Part shown: one piece after another, positions 10,840 to 17,950 of the stretch
Position numbering within the stretch: the first letter of the stretch is position 1
How the letters are laid out: the number at the start of each line of letters is the position of its first letter
IMG/VR virus record: IMGVR_UViG_2698536401_000006
Strand: one strand, 5' to 3'
DNA: 21,234 nt
Source of the DNA: a virus
Taxonomy: Duplodnaviria; Heunggongvirae; Uroviricota; Caudoviricetes
Made by a program: the position numbers and the translations under genes
The notes under the pieces: model-generated
What the model was told of the DNA's origin: nothing
What the model saw: only the letters and a program-made list of their open reading frames with translations
The model's database searches: none

Positions 10840-12153
10840 TCAATCTTTTTTATCGGGATCAGGCTTCTTTTTAGGTAACTTCGGGGGCTTAACTTGCTGA
10901 TGACTTTGCGTTCGGCGCGTAAGCCAGGGATGGTCAGCTTTAGGTTTAACATAGTATTTTGAGCGTAAATCAATACGGGCATTATCCACTCGTTCATGGA
11001 CACTCTTTTCATCATCCAGTGGTATAGGCTCCGGGCCATCAACATACTTTTCCCAGCCCAGCGCTTTCCCGTCATACAGAACGTTAATTTCACCGTCAAA
11101 GTTCTCGCATACAGTAACAACCGAATGCCTAAGTCGATATCCCCGGCCCTCACTGCGTACCTGAAACGCACTGCTTTTGTACTGGAAAGTGAGATTTTTA
11201 GACAGAACGCGCTTCGCCTGTAGGCTGAAGATATAACCCAGTTCCTCTTCAGAATGGTGCACATCAAGATGAGCATTATCAGTAGTACGAGGCGACGTAG
11301 CGAACCGGTTGTTATAGGCTTCAATAAAGGTCGGCAACCATGCATTTGCTGTTTCAATATCACTGATATTCTGAAGCCGCATTTCTTTGACCAGCCTGTC
11401 CTGTAGTGTCTGATTGGCGCGCTCTACCCGCCCTTTTGCCTGCGGGCTGTTGGCATGGATTGGCTCGATGCCCAGTGTCTTTATCGCACGAGTGAACTGG
11501 GTCAGCTCACCTTCCCGCTCTGGGTTATTTACCCTGAATATACTGTGTCTATCAGAGTAGAGAGCGAGCGGTACGCCATGATCATTAAGGTAACCCCGGA
11601 GGGTTTCCATGTAAGCCCGGGTTGTTTCAGCAGGCACAAAACGCAACGCCATCAACGCACTGGTGGCATCATCAATGAAAACGATCAGTGTACATCTGGG
11701 GCCTCGATTTTCAAACCAGTCATGAGGTGAGCCATCAATCTGGATCAGTTCACCGTAAGATGGTCGTCGCATGCGGCGTTGATATATACGGGCAATTTTA
11801 CGACGGCGTTCACGCCATAACCCCTCTTCTATCATCCACTTTCTGAGAGTTTCAACGGATAAAGATAAACCGTGTATCTCGCGCAATTTTTCGCACGCAA
11901 ACGTAGGTCCAAAATCAGCGTAACGGCCTTTGAGGAGTGAAATTACTGTTGCTCTGAATTCAGTAGAAAAGGAATTATTAGGACGCTTTCCACGTCGGTG
12001 GGAAACCAGACCAGAAGGCCCTTCATTTCTATACCGTTGCACCAGACGTTTAACCTGCCGAATAGAAATGCCAATGCGTGCCGCAGCTTGTTCCTGAATA
12101 ATCTGAAGTCGGTGGAGTTCCTTATGACTCATCGTAACAGTCTCTTTGATCAT
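10840..12153 (-). CDS. DDE transposase with N-terminal HTH and rve (integrase-core) domain, IS481-like in architecture
   Basis: 437 aa with an N-terminal HTH region (ISIRQVKRLVQRY) and D/D/E-type core segments (IQIDGSPHDWF, LIVFIDDATS, LYSDRHSIF, ERANQTLQD). IS family is not established and IS ends were not identified. Confidence 0.75.
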   Translation of the reverse strand: MIKETVTMSHKELHRLQIIQEQAAARIGISIRQVKRLVQRYRNEGPSGLVSHRRGKRPNNSFSTEFRATVISLLKGRYADFGPTFACEKLREIHGLSLSVETLRKWMIEEGLWRERRRKIARIYQRRMRRPSYGELIQIDGSPHDWFENRGPRCTLIVFIDDATSALMALRFVPAETTRAYMETLRGYLNDHGVPLALYSDRHSIFRVNNPEREGELTQFTRAIKTLGIEPIHANSPQAKGRVERANQTLQDRLVKEMRLQNISDIETANAWLPTFIEAYNNRFATSPRTTDNAHLDVHHSEEELGYIFSLQAKRVLSKNLTFQYKSSAFQVRSEGRGYRLRHSVVTVCENFDGEINVLYDGKALGWEKYVDGPEPIPLDDEKSVHERVDNARIDLRSKYYVKPKADHPWLTRRTQSHQQVKPPKLPKKKPDPDKKD

Positions 12154-12636: not shown

Positions 12637-13665
12637 TTACGCCTTAATAGGGTTAATCACATTTCCGCTATCCGTACCATAGTATTTTTTTGTAGTCATG
12701 CCTTGTTTATAATAATCATTTAACAGTTTGAGAAAGTTTCTTCCTTGCCTCTCATCTTCTATGACTAATTTACCATGCTCATTGGTCTTAAACTCTTCGT
12801 TCTGAAACATTTTTAGCACATCATTCATAGCTTGAACATCATTCTTTTCCAGAACCGTATGGTTACCTTTCTCAGCGATATGAGTGAGAATTTTTCTCAG
12901 TGATGGCTTATGAAGAATAGCTTGTTCAATAACATCTAAACCTTCAATAAGATCAAGTTCTTTAATTGTATTTAATGTTTTTTGTGCAGCTTCTGTAAAC
13001 TCAACCTCCAAGCCTACAATAGCCTCAAAACTTTTCTTATGAAATACATAAAATTGATCTTTTATATAAATACAATCGATTTTGTCATCAAAATTGACTG
13101 CGCTGCCATCAAATGATCTTAACTCTTTATCTGTTTTATCAAACAAAGCGAATACGCGCTGAGTCATATTTTGTGGTTCATTTGTTGTGACTTTCCCCCT
13201 GCTGATTTTTCGGAAAGAATAAGTGACGTCAGCCCCCTTTTGGACTTTAATACAATAGGCCCACAAATCATTCTGAACCTCAGCCAGAGAGGTAAGTACA
13301 ACTGGTTTATCATTCTTTATATCGTTATTAATAACTTTTGAAAACGATATCGCGTTATTCATAGCATAGGCATAAATCTTATTATCAATATCATCATCAA
13401 TAACAGTATACTTTTTCATCACAATATCATCTTTCGAAGCATGAGAAATAATCTGGTTTGATAAAGTATACTTAAAAAATTTAGCAATATCTGGAGCGAT
13501 TGGAGCTTTAATGATTTTAAAATCGAATTTATCAACAACTCTTGCGGTTCTACTCATACCCGCTTTAAGATGTCTAGTAATGAAATACAACGATATTTTC
13601 GCCGCATCATCATCCTTAAGTTGCTCAGCATACTCTAATAATTCTTCAAGCTTTAACATTTTCAT
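12637..13665 (-). CDS. Hypothetical 342 aa soluble protein, second gene of the low-GC cassette (candidate defence effector/sensor)
   Basis: AT-rich ORF with Lys/Asn/Ile-biased codon usage unlike the surrounding prophage. Translationally coupled (ATGA overlap) to the upstream membrane protein gene. No motif I can name. Confidence 0.75.
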   Translation of the reverse strand: MKMLKLEELLEYAEQLKDDDAAKISLYFITRHLKAGMSRTARVVDKFDFKIIKAPIAPDIAKFFKYTLSNQIISHASKDDIVMKKYTVIDDDIDNKIYAYAMNNAISFSKVINNDIKNDKPVVLTSLAEVQNDLWAYCIKVQKGADVTYSFRKISRGKVTTNEPQNMTQRVFALFDKTDKELRSFDGSAVNFDDKIDCIYIKDQFYVFHKKSFEAIVGLEVEFTEAAQKTLNTIKELDLIEGLDVIEQAILHKPSLRKILTHIAEKGNHTVLEKNDVQAMNDVLKMFQNEEFKTNEHGKLVIEDERQGRNFLKLLNDYYKQGMTTKKYYGTDSGNVINPIKA

Positions 13666-14276
13666 TCCTTATGGGATTCAGCATAAAAAAGTTTTGGGCC
13701 CACGTCCTCAACATCAAGAAGATCATCTTCCTCCAAATACTTTGATTTAGTCAAAACCATACCAGTGCGTTTTTTGTCGCTTTCTAAATCCAAATATGTA
13801 ACTTGATATAAAGTATAATTAATACTTATTGTAGGATTTATAAGTATCATGCTTGAATTAATATATATTAAAGCCGTTACCGTTAACAATATTGCTATAG
13901 GTATAACATTAGTTAAAGTGGATAGATCCTGAAATACAAACGGAATTATATATGTAAAAAGATAGCTTATTGATTCATTGTTTTTATTTTCAATATCTAT
14001 AACTCTTACAGTTCTACCACTAGTGGCGCATCGACGTTTTATATTTTTTAAAAAAATTGTTAATCCTACAATACCAAATAATGATAATACACCAATGACA
14101 CTGACCGCGCCAAAGTATTTAAAGAAAATAGTTAATGATTCAACACTTATACCTTTCCAATTTAAATAGCTTCTATAAGTATACAATTGCACAAAACACA
14201 TGATAAAGAATAGGGGAAGGTATGACACTATAAATAGCGAAACTCTAGCACCTAAATGTAGTTTATTTACTCTCAT
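13662..14276 (-). CDS. 4-TM membrane protein, first gene of the low-GC cassette
   Basis: 204 aa with four hydrophobic segments (about 12-31, 48-74, 103-115, 123-146) and an acidic C-terminal tail. AT-rich. Its stop overlaps the start of the downstream gene. Confidence 0.7.
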   Translation of the reverse strand: MRVNKLHLGARVSLFIVSYLPLFFIMCFVQLYTYRSYLNWKGISVESLTIFFKYFGAVSVIGVLSLFGIVGLTIFLKNIKRRCATSGRTVRVIDIENKNNESISYLFTYIIPFVFQDLSTLTNVIPIAILLTVTALIYINSSMILINPTISINYTLYQVTYLDLESDKKRTGMVLTKSKYLEEDDLLDVEDVGPKLFYAESHKE

Positions 14277-14484: not shown

Positions 14485-15171
14485 TCACTCCTTCTCTTCT
14501 TTATCGTAGTGGAGTTGACCAATTTTGATAAGAGGGCGTCCCTGAGATTTGCGGTGTAGATTGGTATCGCGCAGAGAATACACACAGCCACAATATTCCT
14601 GCTGATAGAATTTTTCGCGCTTGCTGATTTCAATCATGCGGGACGAGCCGCCCTGCTTGCGCCAGTTATAATCCCAGTACACCATGCCCGGATAATGCGC
14701 GACGGCTCGCCGCCCACAGTCGTTAACCTGCTGCATATTTTTCCAGCGTGAAATGCCCAGTGAACTGCTGATCACACTGAAACCATTTTCAGCAGCGTAC
14801 AGCGCTGTCCGCTCAAAACGCATGTCAAAACACATGGTACAACGGATCCCCCTCTCGGGCTCCCATTCCATTCCTTTGGCACGTTCAAACCAGTTGTCTG
14901 TGTCGTAATCAGCATCAATAAATGGCACGCCGTGTTGTTCAGCAAAGCGAATATTCTCATCCTTACGAATTAAATACTCTTTCTGAGGATGAATGTTCGG
15001 GTTGTAGAAAAAGATGGTATAGTCGATTCCCGAGGCCTGAAGCGCCTCCATCACTTCACCGGAACATGGAGCACAGCAAGAGTGCAGTAGTAGTTTGTTT
15101 GCCCCGTTTGGGAGCTCCAATTTAGGCCGTTTGAAATCAGCAATAGTCATAAATATTTTTATTGGGGTCAT
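14485..15171 (-). CDS. QueH-like protein (DUF208, epoxyqueuosine reductase family)
   Basis: 228 aa containing [14 protein letters not shown] near the N-terminus, the Cys motif I associate with QueH/DUF208, plus further conserved Cys (CTMC, CGC). Start could be the internal Met at 15150. Confidence 0.65.
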
Positions 15172-15347: not shown

Positions 15348-15746
15348 TCACTGATAAAATGCCAGTATGCGCTGCATAACTTCGCTCTTCCGGCACTCAC
15401 AGCAAATTATGTTTTGGTGCCTGTCATAACGACGTATTTCTCCGTCAGGTAATGACCAGATAAGGTCCGGATCAACCACAGATGTTTTCTTCACCTTTGC
15501 CCTCGAGAGTTTTTTGCGGGCGTTTTGCCAGTCCTTACGAGCCTGTTCAGACGGGAATAACCCGTAGCCAGAGTTATATACATCACCACTGGCAACCAGC
15601 TCTCTGGCGAGAACGCTCATCAGATATCTTGTCGCACCTGTCTTGGCTTCCAGTTGCCGTAACGTCTCGCGCCCACTCCGGCGTACTAGCTCAACAACCT
15701 GCCCCTTGATTTTTTCCCGCTCTTCTTGTGTAAAAACTTTTGCCAC
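15348..15746 (-). CDS. Hypothetical 132 aa early-region protein
   Basis: ORF immediately downstream of the O-like gene; no recognisable motifs (no Walker A). Function unknown. Confidence 0.5.
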   Translation of the reverse strand: MAKVFTQEEREKIKGQVVELVRRSGRETLRQLEAKTGATRYLMSVLARELVASGDVYNSGYGLFPSEQARKDWQNARKKLSRAKVKKTSVVDPDLIWSLPDGEIRRYDRHQNIICCECRKSEVMQRILAFYQ

Positions 15747-15786: not shown

Positions 15787-16806
15787 TTATCCTCTGAAAC
15801 CAGGCGGAATTTCTGTATCCGGTTCAGAAATATGATTAACACAACGCTGTACAGGTGAACGCCCCAGGCGGATGACCAGTTCGTCCCATTTTTCGCGGAG
15901 CTTTGACGGGCTCATGATGTTTTTTACCCAGAATGGATCCCGCTGTACCCGACCAAACATTTCACAAATTTGTCTGTGGCTTCTGCCATCCAGCATCCGC
16001 ATTGTGCGCACATCATTGGCCCAGACAGTCCAGTTAGGCTCTTTTGGTCGCATGATCTCGCCATCATCACTGGCGGCCTGTTCGTAGAGACCCACGATCC
16101 GCCCCCATATCCACTGCGCACACGCCAGATCCTCCTGGCTACCCCACTGGCGTTTTTTCGCACTAAACACAACTGCGCCAGGGTGCCGGATTAAAAAATC
16201 CTGTTCAGCCGTCTGCGGGTCCGGTTGCGAAGCTTCCGGACGAAAAGTGTTTTTATTCTCTGTAGTAATCTCTGTTGTATTCTCTGTAGGATCATCGGGC
16301 CATTTTGACCCGATGACATTGGGTCGTTTTGAACCAATGGAGCGTTTCATTTTGACCTCTTCCATCGTGTCATTTTGACCTGATGGAGCGGCGCATTTTG
16401 AACCGATGGATTCGCTCAATTTGCCATCATCTAAAAGCTCGCTCCCATAGTTAATCGTGTAGAAATTGGTCATATCGCGCTTTGATTTATTGAGCTTTTC
16501 ACAACGCAAAAGCCCCAGCGTTTTCAGACTTGCAAACGCGCGCTTTAACGTTGACTCTGACCAGAATGGGAACTGTTCCAGCCATTGTTCCGTTGTGTTG
16601 TAAATCCAGCGAACACCATCACATTCCATGCCGGAATTGGTATCTCTCAACCAGTAATGCAACTGCTGCAACACAATGGCTTCATTTAAGCCAATCTTCA
16701 TCGCAAGCTGTGTGTTTATAACCAGTGGGCGTTCAGCAAAAAGAAGGCTCATAATTCCATCCAGCTTTTTGTTGGTATTGCTGTCGATACGCAAGTTTGA
16801 AAGCAA
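15787..16806 (-). CDS. Lambda O-like replication initiator with the origin embedded in its coding sequence
   Basis: 339 aa with an N-terminal winged-helix-like region. Five iterons in the middle of the gene give the peptide repeats SIGSK/VIGSK. Lies downstream of cro-like dicC. Start may be the internal Met at 16752. Confidence 0.7.
   Translation of the reverse strand: MLSNLRIDSNTNKKLDGIMSLLFAERPLVINTQLAMKIGLNEAIVLQQLHYWLRDTNSGMECDGVRWIYNTTEQWLEQFPFWSESTLKRAFASLKTLGLLRCEKLNKSKRDMTNFYTINYGSELLDDGKLSESIGSKCAAPSGQNDTMEEVKMKRSIGSKRPNVIGSKWPDDPTENTTEITTENKNTFRPEASQPDPQTAEQDFLIRHPGAVVFSAKKRQWGSQEDLACAQWIWGRIVGLYEQAASDDGEIMRPKEPNWTVWANDVRTMRMLDGRSHRQICEMFGRVQRDPFWVKNIMSPSKLREKWDELVIRLGRSPVQRCVNHISEPDTEIPPGFRG
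16295..16410. repeat. Replication origin iterons: five copies of about CATTTTGA(C/A)C(C/T)GATGG at 23-24 bp spacing
   Basis: Copies start near 16301, 16325, 16348, 16371 and 16394; the first is part of the palindrome TCATCGGG..CCCGATGA. An adjacent AT-rich tract with ACAGAGAATA repeats (16230-16290) lies on the downstream side, as in lambda ori. Confidence 0.75.
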
Positions 16807-17254
16807 TTGCTTTTTCTATAAGTTCGTCAGTTTCACGATCCACTACGGCAGGATCAGCAAAAAGCAGTCCGGACTCCACCACATCGCCATATTCTTTGTT
16901 TAACCCGGCGATCATGTACGTGATGCTTTTTCCGTCACTAATTTCACGATGCAACCTGAAATCATTAATCCGGATAGCCTCCATAATTGCAGGCACTAGC
17001 GCCGTGAACTTTTCACGCTTATCCCTGGTGTCGATAGCCTTCCAGCGTTCGAATATCTTCACTCGATTAACGCCAAGCGCTCGCTGATCAACCGCGCCAC
17101 CTTCATCTGTGACACGCTGAACATCGATGTTCGGGCGCTCTTTCAAAGCCCAGAATGCTTCAGTGATTAATATCGTCGCCTGCTCCTGTGTCATTCCTGG
17201 TCGACATATCCAGGCATCCAGAGCCTCACGAGCCTGTTCAGGAGTGATTTTCAT
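16733..17254 (-). CDS. Hypothetical 173 aa early protein adjacent to dicC (cII/YdaT position)
   Basis: ORF overlapping the dicC stop. Possible weak resemblance to YdaT-type proteins, but this is from uncertain memory only. Confidence 0.55.
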   Translation of the reverse strand: MKITPEQAREALDAWICRPGMTQEQATILITEAFWALKERPNIDVQRVTDEGGAVDQRALGVNRVKIFERWKAIDTRDKREKFTALVPAIMEAIRINDFRLHREISDGKSITYMIAGLNKEYGDVVESGLLFADPAVVDRETDELIEKAIAFKLAYRQQYQQKAGWNYEPSFC

Positions 17255-17465
17255 TGTTCAACCGCCCCGCCCGCTTCGTCTTACGATATTCGTCATAAAC
17301 CTTGGGATCATACAGAAGCTCGCCGCCAGATGCCTCCTGTAGACGCATCGCGCGACCTTCAGGAACCAGCTCTTGCCATTGAGAAACAGCAGATGGGTCA
17401 ACGCCAGCAGCTTTCGCTACTTTGGCTTTCGTACCGTAAAAATTAATTACGTCTGATTTAAACAT
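17238..17465 (-). CDS. dicC: Cro-like repressor DicC
   Basis: The C-terminal ...LVPEGRAMRLQEASGGELLYDPKVYDEYRKTKRAGRLNNENHS matches remembered DicC. Probable start is the ATG at 17465 (MFKSDVINFYG) with SD GGAGG; the ORF track extends to 17492. Confidence 0.8.
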   Translation of the reverse strand: MFKSDVINFYGTKAKVAKAAGVDPSAVSQWQELVPEGRAMRLQEASGGELLYDPKVYDEYRKTKRAGRLNNENHS

Positions 17466-17542: not shown

Positions 17543-17950
17543 ATGAACGAGAAAACTTTAGGTCAACGCATTAGAGAAAGACGTAAGCAGGTAGGCTTAA
17601 GTCAAAACGGTTTAAGCAAAGCTGCTGGCGTATCTGGCTCATCAATTTCATTATGGGAAAGTGACCATACAGCCCCGCGCGGGCAAAATTTGCATCGCCT
17701 CGCCGAGGTATTGCAATGTTCACCAACCTGGATACTGTTTGGCGACGAGGACAAAACACCAGCTCCCCCTGTTTCACTCGATAGTGCCTTAGACTTATCG
17801 GAAGATGAGTTAGAGATGCTGCGTTTGTATCGCGCACTTCCTAAATCAGAGCAACAAGCACAACTCAGCGAACTCCGCGCCCGCGTTGAGAATTTTAATC
17901 GCCTGTTCACCGAGCTATTAGAGGCTCGCAAACGCAACAAGCATCAATAA
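17543..17950 (+). CDS. dicA: cI-like HTH repressor DicA
   Basis: 135 aa from the ATG at 17543 (MNEKTLGQRIRERRKQVGLSQNGLSKAAGVSGSSISLWE...LQCSPTWILFGDEDK...), matching remembered DicA in length and motifs. The ORF track extends to 17492. Confidence 0.85.
   Translation: MNEKTLGQRIRERRKQVGLSQNGLSKAAGVSGSSISLWESDHTAPRGQNLHRLAEVLQCSPTWILFGDEDKTPAPPVSLDSALDLSEDELEMLRLYRALPKSEQQAQLSELRARVENFNRLFTELLEARKRNKHQ

Follow-up and report, generated by a model that had tools for sequence, protein, structure and literature searches.

A lambda-type replication module with a DnaT-like initiator tail and no P gene in a Qin-like prophage of Escherichia coli

The C-terminal part of the O protein of phage lambda specifies the interaction with P, and P delivers DnaB. 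Modules lacking a helicase loader were reportedly catalogued by Weigel and Seitz in 2006 as 'initiator-solo'; a citing paper confirms only the IL/ILH nomenclature. The origin layout of lambda and 434 has been defined experimentally: lambda O dimers bind the iterons through their N-domain, and the O-some destabilises the AT-rich tract (PMC7466680). The host protein DnaT ends in a highly flexible segment of 20 residues (PMC5778457). The dnaT and dnaC genes interact genetically and share an operon, and the preprimosome structures of 2026 were published with the recruitment of DnaB/DnaC by DnaT stated as unknown (PMC13377028). Here we compare with these systems a replication module in a window of 21,234 nucleotides, the whole stretch of DNA analysed (IMG/VR record IMGVR_UViG_2698536401_000006). 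Its O-like initiator gene carries a candidate origin, ends in a DnaT-like tail and is followed by no P gene. Judging from sequence comparisons, we put at about 0.55 the probability that a Qin-like lambdoid prophage here carries an intact module of lambda type, in which the DnaT-type tail would serve as an adaptor to host DnaB loading.

A candidate origin inside the initiator gene

The initiator gene and its parts, in the order of transcription, are the following (CDS, coding sequence; AF2, AlphaFold2; pLDDT, predicted local distance difference test).

15787-16752, minus strand: CDS of the O-like replication initiator, 321 aa from ATG 16752, sharing 20 nt with the end of the gene upstream
16429-16752, minus strand: N-terminal domain (aa 1-108), predicted winged-helix origin-binding domain, not of the lambda O type
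16293-16431, no strand assigned: iteron array, six units of about 23 bp (five good, one degenerate), gene-strand consensus CATCRGKTCAAAATG
16241-16292, no strand assigned: AT-rich tract, putative DNA-unwinding element, containing TCTCTGTAGTAA x2.8 (a period-12 repeat in Tandem Repeats Finder)
15865-16206, minus strand: C-terminal domain, helical (aa 183-296), with homology to the C-domain of lambda, 434 and phi80 O
15790-15852, minus strand: DnaT-like tail (aa 301-321), VQRCVNHISEPDTEIPPGFRG, predicted disordered, pLDDT about 30 in AF2

The preliminary description of this locus had called for a profile search of the open reading frame (ORF) against replication families. Such a search assigned the protein to PHROG 391, 'replication initiation O-like' (E 3.5e-92), and found no Pfam family match. 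The protein has 4266 homologs, and all those listed are labelled 'hypothetical'. The preliminary length of 339 aa is correct as an open frame, which extends to TTG 16806, but is a mechanical maximum; translation most likely begins at ATG 16752, for a protein of 321 aa with the same bounds as RefSeq WP_000054487.1 and the corresponding CDS of phage HannyBb.

We found the initiator to be a four-part mosaic of a winged-helix N-domain, a disordered linker, a lambda O C-domain and a DnaT-like tail. AF2 modelled residues ~10-105 with a pLDDT of about 64-84 and with the helix and strand order typical of a winged helix. The top PDB matches of this domain in Foldseek were the staphylococcal plasmid initiators 4PQL, 4PT7 and 5KBJ, all of them weak (E 0.018-0.19; the best with probability 1.0 and a template-modelling score, TM, of 0.54), and the domain is 43-46% identical to the N-termini of Staphylococcus phage initiators. 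It is unrelated to the N-domain of lambda O: there was no match to Pfam Phage_rep_O, and alignments with lambda-type O proteins span residues 147/170-315 only. The preliminary description, which had recognised an O-like gene, had overlooked this difference in the N-domain. The linker, residues 109-177, is predicted to be disordered (pLDDT ~25), and the DNA that encodes it consists of the iterons plus the AT-rich tract. The C-domain, helical in AF2 (pLDDT 56-77), is 32% identical to that of 434 O by blastp (E 5e-27) and 36% identical to lambda-type O genes by tblastn (E 5e-17), with lambda, 933W and phi80 O at E ~1e-17. Foldseek returned no informative PDB structural match for the C-domain. The top phmmer match of the protein in the PDB, the glycosyl hydrolase YteR (E 0.003), was rejected as a chance local match.

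The good iteron units occupy 16293-16315, 16317-16339, 16340-16362, 16363-16385 and 16386-16408, and the degenerate sixth 16409-16431, at a spacing of 24/23/23/23/23. Five iterons spaced by 23-24 bp and producing SIGSK repeats had been noticed at the outset; a repeat search (spacings of 24/23/23/23), Tandem Repeats Finder (period 23, 3.7 copies) and a consensus scan all put the array at 16293-16431, in which a degenerate sixth copy was counted. A search for CATTTTGACCYGATG with up to three mismatches gave seven matches in the whole window, five of them within 116 bp, where 1.29 would be expected per 21 kb window. The best iterons are dyad-symmetric, reading CATCGGGTC AAAAT GGCCCGATG on the gene strand and centred on TCAAAAT, and are similar in shape to the lambda/434 iteron ATCCCTCAAAACGAGGGA. 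The initiator ORF thus contains, between its N- and C-domains, a dyad-symmetric array of more than the four iterons that a lambda-type origin calls for. The array corresponds to nt 322-460 of the gene; the annotated origin of 434 has four iterons at gene nt 349-433.

SIGSK and VIGSK repeats are visible in the protein, and the array could in principle be a mere repetitive peptide or low-complexity coding feature, with the origin elsewhere. We give this reading almost no credence. The six units are translated in frames 0,2,1,0,2,2, and SIGSK/VIGSK is present only at the recurring frame; because 23 nt, the length of the period, cannot be divided by three, selection on the DNA rather than on the peptide is indicated, and the disorder modelled for the linker likewise favours a repeat that acts as DNA. 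The repeat DNA is also kept where the peptide differs, the repeats at this site change from one N-domain class to the next, and the layout is that of the experimentally defined lambda/434 origin (PMC7466680).

Directly downstream of the last iteron, in gene orientation, lies the AT-rich tract, as in lambda. Positions 16240-16289 have 32% GC, and the AT-richest 40-mer of the whole CDS begins at 16242 (72.5% AT vs 51.6% for the whole gene), in agreement with the AT-rich tract first noted beside the iterons. Phage 434 has a stretch of 72% AT after its iterons, in the same place. With the match to PHROG 391, the homology of the C-domain to lambda and 434 O and this shared position within the gene, the lambda O/ori arrangement proposed for the locus is upheld. 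Three DnaA boxes were found in the window vs 2.9 expected, none of them in the origin and the nearest in the downstream DUF977 gene; at this chance level, the scan gives no sign of DnaA dependence.

Conservation of the repeats in homologous genes, on which the origin reading had been made to hinge, was found. The iteron core TCCATCGGGTCAAAATG, the 23/46/24 spacing and the AT-rich segment TACAGAGAATACAACAGAG are all retained in relatives of 68% identity, namely IMG/VR class J and phage mEp460_4F5. Other N-domain classes have different repeats at the same mid-gene site: GTCAAAATCTGAC x6 with 15-bp spacing in SfIV-type genes and, in two further classes, GAAGCCGATTC x4 in one and GTGCAGGAGATTCAC x4 in the other. 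The iterons therefore co-vary with the N-domain class, as expected of a binding site and its reader.

The copy number within the origin also varies. Protein P0018 lacks 31 aa of the array (about four iteron units), and in P0100 and P0119 the AT-rich tract is longer by one TTEN unit. The junction that follows this tract looks alike in the window (16236-16250, ACTTTTCGTCCGG), in 434 (locus L208, ~2570-2581, ATTATTCGTCAGAG) and in SfIV-type genes (CTTCTCGTCCGGA). This likeness suggests that the AT-rich tract and the C-domain travel as one recombination module, apart from the N-domain and the iterons.

The DnaT-like tail and the missing P gene

When the initiator was compared with PDB sequences by phmmer, just its last 21 residues aligned with the C-terminus of DnaT in 2RU8, 6AEP and 9ZBT. 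Fourteen of the 17 residues of VNxxSEPDxxIPPGFRG are identical between the initiator tail and DnaT, and the initiator ends, as DnaT does, in ...SEPDxxIPPGFRG-COOH. The likeness is confined to this segment: the NCBIfam DnaT match covers only positions 160-179 of the 179 in the profile, the score against the equivalog NF002770 (DnaT) is 16.2 bits vs a cut-off of 201, and the initiator has no DnaT three-helix bundle, its preceding domain being lambda-O-like. The RAST-style label 'Primosomal protein I' on phage homologs is based on the tail alone. The PHROG labels 'DnaD-like helicase loader' and 'primosomal protein' were likewise set aside as partial matches, which cover only the lambda-O-type C-domain or the tail.

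The gene after the initiator encodes a protein of 132 aa.

15348-15746, minus strand: DUF977/LygF/Ren-like gene, 132 aa, matching Pfam DUF977 (E 8e-29) and PHROG 142, the 'Ren-like' exclusion protein (E 4e-44)

As first described, this protein has no ATPase motif and precedes QueH; both neighbours now have Pfam matches, to DUF977 and to QueH. The possibility that it is a homolog of a loader family, for which a search had been proposed, found no support: the protein has no Walker A motif and no match to lambda P (PF06992) or DnaC/IstB (PF01695), its best PDB sequence match is insignificant (E 0.24), and just DUF977/Ren-like families were matched. Its C-terminus, NIICCECRKSEVMQRILAFY, is 55% identical to the C-terminus of 434 Ren (E 7e-6). 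In relatives that encode a loader, DUF977 follows it: the order is initiator, lambda-P and DUF977 at locus L209, and initiator, DnaC-like, DUF1627 and DUF977 in IMG/VR class F. In the Rac-SA53 module, lygF stands at the end, and tblastn detected no P or DnaC-like homolog there. The 132-aa protein is therefore the Ren-position gene, a point that the preliminary description had missed, and not the helicase loader, and P is the sole gene absent from the lambda order O-P-ren.

That no helicase loader follows the initiator, as originally reported, holds for the entire prophage. Tblastn searches with lambda P, the P of L209 and a DnaC-like protein found no homolog in the window or in the 35-kb prophage, and neither the module nor the prophage encodes a helicase loader, helicase or primase. 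A Walker-A scan of the window gave only chance matches, in lysis or transposase ORFs.

We compared tail type with loader genes in three samples. The first was a tail scan of IMG/VR with a DNA pattern for [EQ]IP[PA]GFRG-stop, which found at least 80 loci. Among the 80 GFRG-tail loci listed, none has a lambda-P homolog and 19 have an IstB/DnaC-like AAA+ gene just downstream; the others among the matches listed are followed by Dam, PerC, DUF977, RusA, RuvC or KilA-N genes. Among the same matches, the tail is found on at least 10 N-domain classes, and the domain ahead of it is of three kinds: the C-domain of lambda O, the three-helix bundle of DnaT in full, or a third type. The second sample comprised 33 viral loci chosen for one P family, that of L209. 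All 33 upstream initiators, which belong to seven N-domain families, end in [HD]WN[ST]xE[GA]W..L (hereafter W-tail), and none has GFRG. As these two samples had been selected on the tail or on P, a third was anchored solely on the shared C-domain, with one genome per species; it contained 80 loci from Enterobacterales and Oxalobacteraceae. In this sample, P lies directly downstream of 33 of the 38 W-tail initiators and of none of the 14 with a GFRG-type tail, of which two have a DnaC-like gene and 12 no loader (Fisher p 6.6e-9 for the association of P with tail type). Spot checks of unclassified downstream genes revealed ParB-HTH, DUF1627, MT-A70 and RdgC genes and no hidden loader.

A sister locus places the switch between the two tails precisely. 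Protein P0034 of L209 is 75% identical to the window initiator, stands in the same cro-ydaT context and ends in ...GDWNSADGWEDVL; downstream of its gene come a Pfam Phage_lambda_P gene and, after that, DUF977. The two loci share 80% nucleotide similarity from cro to 15863 (residue ~296, the end of the C-domain), where the similarity stops. This co-variation of a DnaT-type tail with the absence of P had likewise gone unnoticed in the preliminary description.

Several loci add to the range of C-termini. L274-L285, from Sodalis, Edwardsiella and Proteus, encode initiators of 363-394 aa with a lambda-O-type C-domain that end in ...IWKQATEMSQEVQ or ...GGKAA and have no P or DnaC-like gene downstream; these may be further loader-free solutions. 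In L091, L133, L146 and L159, the whole DnaT C-terminal domain (the three-helix bundle) and the tail are joined to DUF1376-like or other N-domains. L091, with DUF1376, the DnaT C-terminal domain and the tail next to a DnaC-like gene, resembles the host dnaT-dnaC operon. The hexapeptide MKNIAA starts both the lambda/434 P (L208, 2995-3696) and the unrelated DnaC/IstB-like loader of class F (L117), and could be an initiator-contact motif or a conserved junction for recombination or translational coupling.

Proposed helicase loading without P

The module had been described as either non-canonical or partly degraded. Non-canonical it is, relative to both lambda and Rac; the second term is not supported, as the O/DUF977 junction is present in phages deposited as complete genomes, one of them (HannyBb) without any loader or helicase. 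Phage HannyBb, isolated from bird faeces, has the same module at 96% DNA identity with the same 40-bp O/DUF977 junction, and its genome, deposited complete at 45,272 bp, has a single replication gene and encodes no loader, helicase or primase. The junction recurs in mEp460_ev081, and the O-LygF gene order in PhiR42_1. In mEp460_4F5, SfIV and Klebsiella phage Kp4886-3, related initiators are followed by PerC, Dam or RusA genes and no loader. The three tblastn queries used for the prophage detected no P or DnaC-like homolog in HannyBb, the mEp460 loci or the SfIV locus. The features of an initiator-solo module, an internal origin with no loader, helicase or primase, are thus found in the window, the prophage and HannyBb, and likewise in the SfIV and mEp460 regions examined.

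These relatives bear directly on the idea that a lambda or Rac-type module lost P or DnaC by deletion and no longer replicates. The defective state of the K-12 Qin prophage would fit such a loss, as would the ISNCY transposase remnant and the moron genes just downstream. We nevertheless regard degradation as very improbable: the 40-bp junction is shared with HannyBb and mEp460_ev081 and a like gene order with PhiR42_1, SfIV and mEp460_4F5, the complete HannyBb genome has no loader, tblastn detected no remnant of P or DnaC, and dozens of IMG/VR contigs carry the intact initiator ORF at 100% identity. The presence of the same P-less module in phages deposited complete, HannyBb among them with no other replication gene, and in other relatives argues that it is not degraded. 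On the sequences compared, the module seems best filed as one more loader-less lambdoid replication module, of the same design as in phages already sequenced, and predicted modules of this kind with a DnaT-like tail are widespread, conserved and common in E. coli prophages.

For such a module we propose the following mechanism. Dimers of the N-domain would bind the iterons, and the O-some would strain and open the AT-rich tract. The extreme C-terminal tail would then act as an adaptor that chooses the route of DnaB delivery: a W-tail would dock the phage P protein, and a DnaT-type tail would dock a component of the host with which DnaT usually acts, DnaB-DnaC or PriA/PriB. Host DnaC, or the phage DnaC paralog in classes F and G, would load DnaB at the opened origin without P. 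The exclusion between GFRG tail and P, the breakpoint at the boundary of C-domain and tail, and the portability of the tail across domains argue for an adaptor role tied to the loading route. We thus infer that the tail couples the initiator to host helicase loading, and the DnaT-like tail probably lets the initiator borrow the host loading machinery. The broader generalisation, that the tail is a portable helicase-loading adaptor that comes in at least two exchangeable forms, a W-tail docking P and a DnaT-type tail docking host DnaB-DnaC (or PriA/PriB) and making P unnecessary, we advance only tentatively.

Several observations weigh against a loading role of the tail or limit its support. 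The loci are phylogenetically related, so the Fisher p overstates their independence. Five W-tail loci have no detectable P, although L267, counted among them, has in truth a GFRG-like variant that the regular expression for the tail had sorted wrongly. Another 28 loci in the C-domain-anchored sample have other C-termini, mostly without P or DnaC (23 'other/none'), indicating that other loader-free solutions exist. Both kinds of tail were observed in just two N-domain families. A DnaC-like gene lies downstream of the class F initiators, which share the C-domain and carry an identical tail; as the tail also stands ahead of phage DnaC-like loaders in classes F and G, it is not simply a loader substitute. 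Finally, AF2 modelled the full-length protein with low confidence (mean pLDDT 55.6), so that only domain boundaries, disorder and the fold class of the N-domain were used.

Some of these observations fit another account, in which the P-less module is functional and its loading does not depend on the tail. The C-domain, or the O-some together with transcription or DnaA, would recruit host DnaB-DnaC, and the tail would serve self-oligomerisation, contact with single-strand DNA or control of turnover. The 23 'other/none' loci, with the same C-domain and neither P nor DnaC, agree with this account, as does the co-occurrence of the tail with phage DnaC-like genes, and older work tied the C-terminal region of DnaT to oligomerisation (PMC5778457). 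Against it speak the finding that GFRG tail and P strictly exclude each other, the breakpoint where the C-domain ends, the portability of the tail and the lack of a DnaA-box cluster at the origin, and we consider it doubtful. Our preferred interpretation accordingly remains an intact lambda-type module whose DnaT-type tail would connect it to host DnaB loading.

Adaptor-like C-terminal tails, and a DnaT tail on many unrelated prophage initiators, appear to be undescribed in the searchable literature: we found no open-access paper on a DnaT-like tail in phage initiators or on its exclusion from P-bearing modules. Apparent matches for 'replication protein O' in DnaT papers were text artefacts. 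The extreme C-terminus of lambda-O-type initiators behaves as an exchangeable adaptor, and its type, one of the two being a copy of the host DnaT tail, predicts whether a P gene follows. The phage initiators are natural domain-swap experiments that could make the recruitment of DnaB/DnaC by DnaT testable, and they give access to two questions, how helicase is loaded independently of P and what the DnaT tail does. Such a result would also set right the annotation of thousands of prophage genes now misleadingly labelled 'Primosomal protein I' or 'hypothetical protein'. If the tail is indeed a portable adaptor, prophage pairs like that of L091 would be related to the host dnaT-dnaC operon or have given rise to it.

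Prophage setting and comparison with known systems

The DNA of the window is that of a Qin-like lambdoid prophage in E. coli. A stretch of 3.1 kb around the initiator is 100% identical to the chromosome of E. coli strain A1, in which the prophage (35 kb, its extent taken from integrase to terminase) adjoins rspB/ynfA, and at least 80% of this 3.1-kb stretch is present in 232 of 5426 complete E. coli genomes. The order on the minus strand is DicC/Cro, YdaT/CII-like, initiator, DUF977, QueH and a Kiwa pair, with a divergent DicA-like repressor, so that, as in lambda, the initiator stands after cro/cII in the rightward early operon. Beyond the initiator and DUF977 genes, the features around the module are the following.

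17543-17950, plus strand: DicA-like repressor, divergent (NCBIfam DicA, E 1.2e-71; RefSeq bounds)
17238-17465, minus strand: Cro/DicC-like regulator, opening the rightward early operon (NCBIfam DicC, E 4e-49; Pfam P22_Cro; RefSeq bounds)
16733-17254, minus strand: YdaT/CII-like gene upstream of the initiator (Pfam YdaT_toxin, E 7.5e-6; PHROG 163, CII-like, E 3e-40)
14485-15150, minus strand: QueH, epoxyqueuosine reductase (Pfam, E 1.9e-65), a moron between the Ren-like gene and Kiwa
13662-14276: KwaA-like ORF (NCBIfam KwaA, E 8e-23, under the curated cut-off)
12638-13660: KwaB (Pfam KwaB, E 2.4e-16)

The YdaT-like and initiator genes overlap by 20 nt (16733-16752), so that a frameshift would fuse them, and a few genomes encode YdaT-like/initiator fusions of 448 aa (proteins P0002-P0004, with Pfam YdaT_toxin, 97-98% identity). 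QueH, as an ORF of 228 aa starting MTPIKIFM, also follows DUF977 in several IMG/VR relatives. The Kiwa anti-phage pair (12638-14276) lies inside the prophage, just downstream of the replication module, and its KwaA-like ORF has no CDS in the RefSeq record of strain A1. Between ydfW and the Kiwa genes, an ORF of 437 aa (10840-12153) corresponds to a RefSeq pseudogene of an incomplete ISNCY-family transposase.

Among known systems, RepA_N-type plasmid initiators such as pSK41/pTZ2162 RepA provide the closest structural match to the N-terminal winged helix, a weak one obtained with a model of medium confidence (pLDDT about 70-84). Their C-terminal parts are unrelated to that of the window initiator, which has no Pfam RepA_N match. 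RepA_N-type replicons also carry iterons inside the rep gene.

The Rac YdaU-YdaV type and IMG/VR classes F and G share with the window the cro/dicC-ydaT-initiator context and DUF977 downstream. Unlike the window, these modules carry two genes between the initiator and DUF977, one for an IstB/DnaC-like AAA+ loader (Pfam PF01695, E 7e-19) and one for DUF1627. YdaU of Rac-SA53 (locus L084, 5673-6743), annotated 'primosomal protein I', has a DnaT-like three-helix segment and no GFRG tail, ending in ...EALDCTDWRDD.

The resemblance to E. coli DnaT (primosomal protein I, a replication-restart adaptor) lies in the last ~20 residues and in a role upstream of DnaB loading. The N-domain, acidic linker and three-helix bundle of DnaT are absent from the initiator, and DnaT is fork-specific, whereas the window initiator would be origin-specific.

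Compared with the O-ori-P module of lambda and 434, the window has its initiator likewise after cro and cII, a mid-gene origin in the linker between two domains, a homologous C-domain (32-36% identity) and a Ren-like gene downstream. It differs in an N-domain of another family, in the iteron sequence, in having five to six iterons vs four, in the absence of P and in a DnaT-type tail where lambda/434 O ends in ...TDWIYGVDL. The module, which would work like the O/ori of lambda, departs from it in two features, the N-domain family and the P partner. The loader-less modules of SfIV (gp41), mEp460 and HannyBb are the closest: each has a single initiator gene with its own origin and no loader or helicase, and the initiators of SfIV, mEp460_4F5 and HannyBb have the same C-domain and tail as that of the window, with no essential difference.

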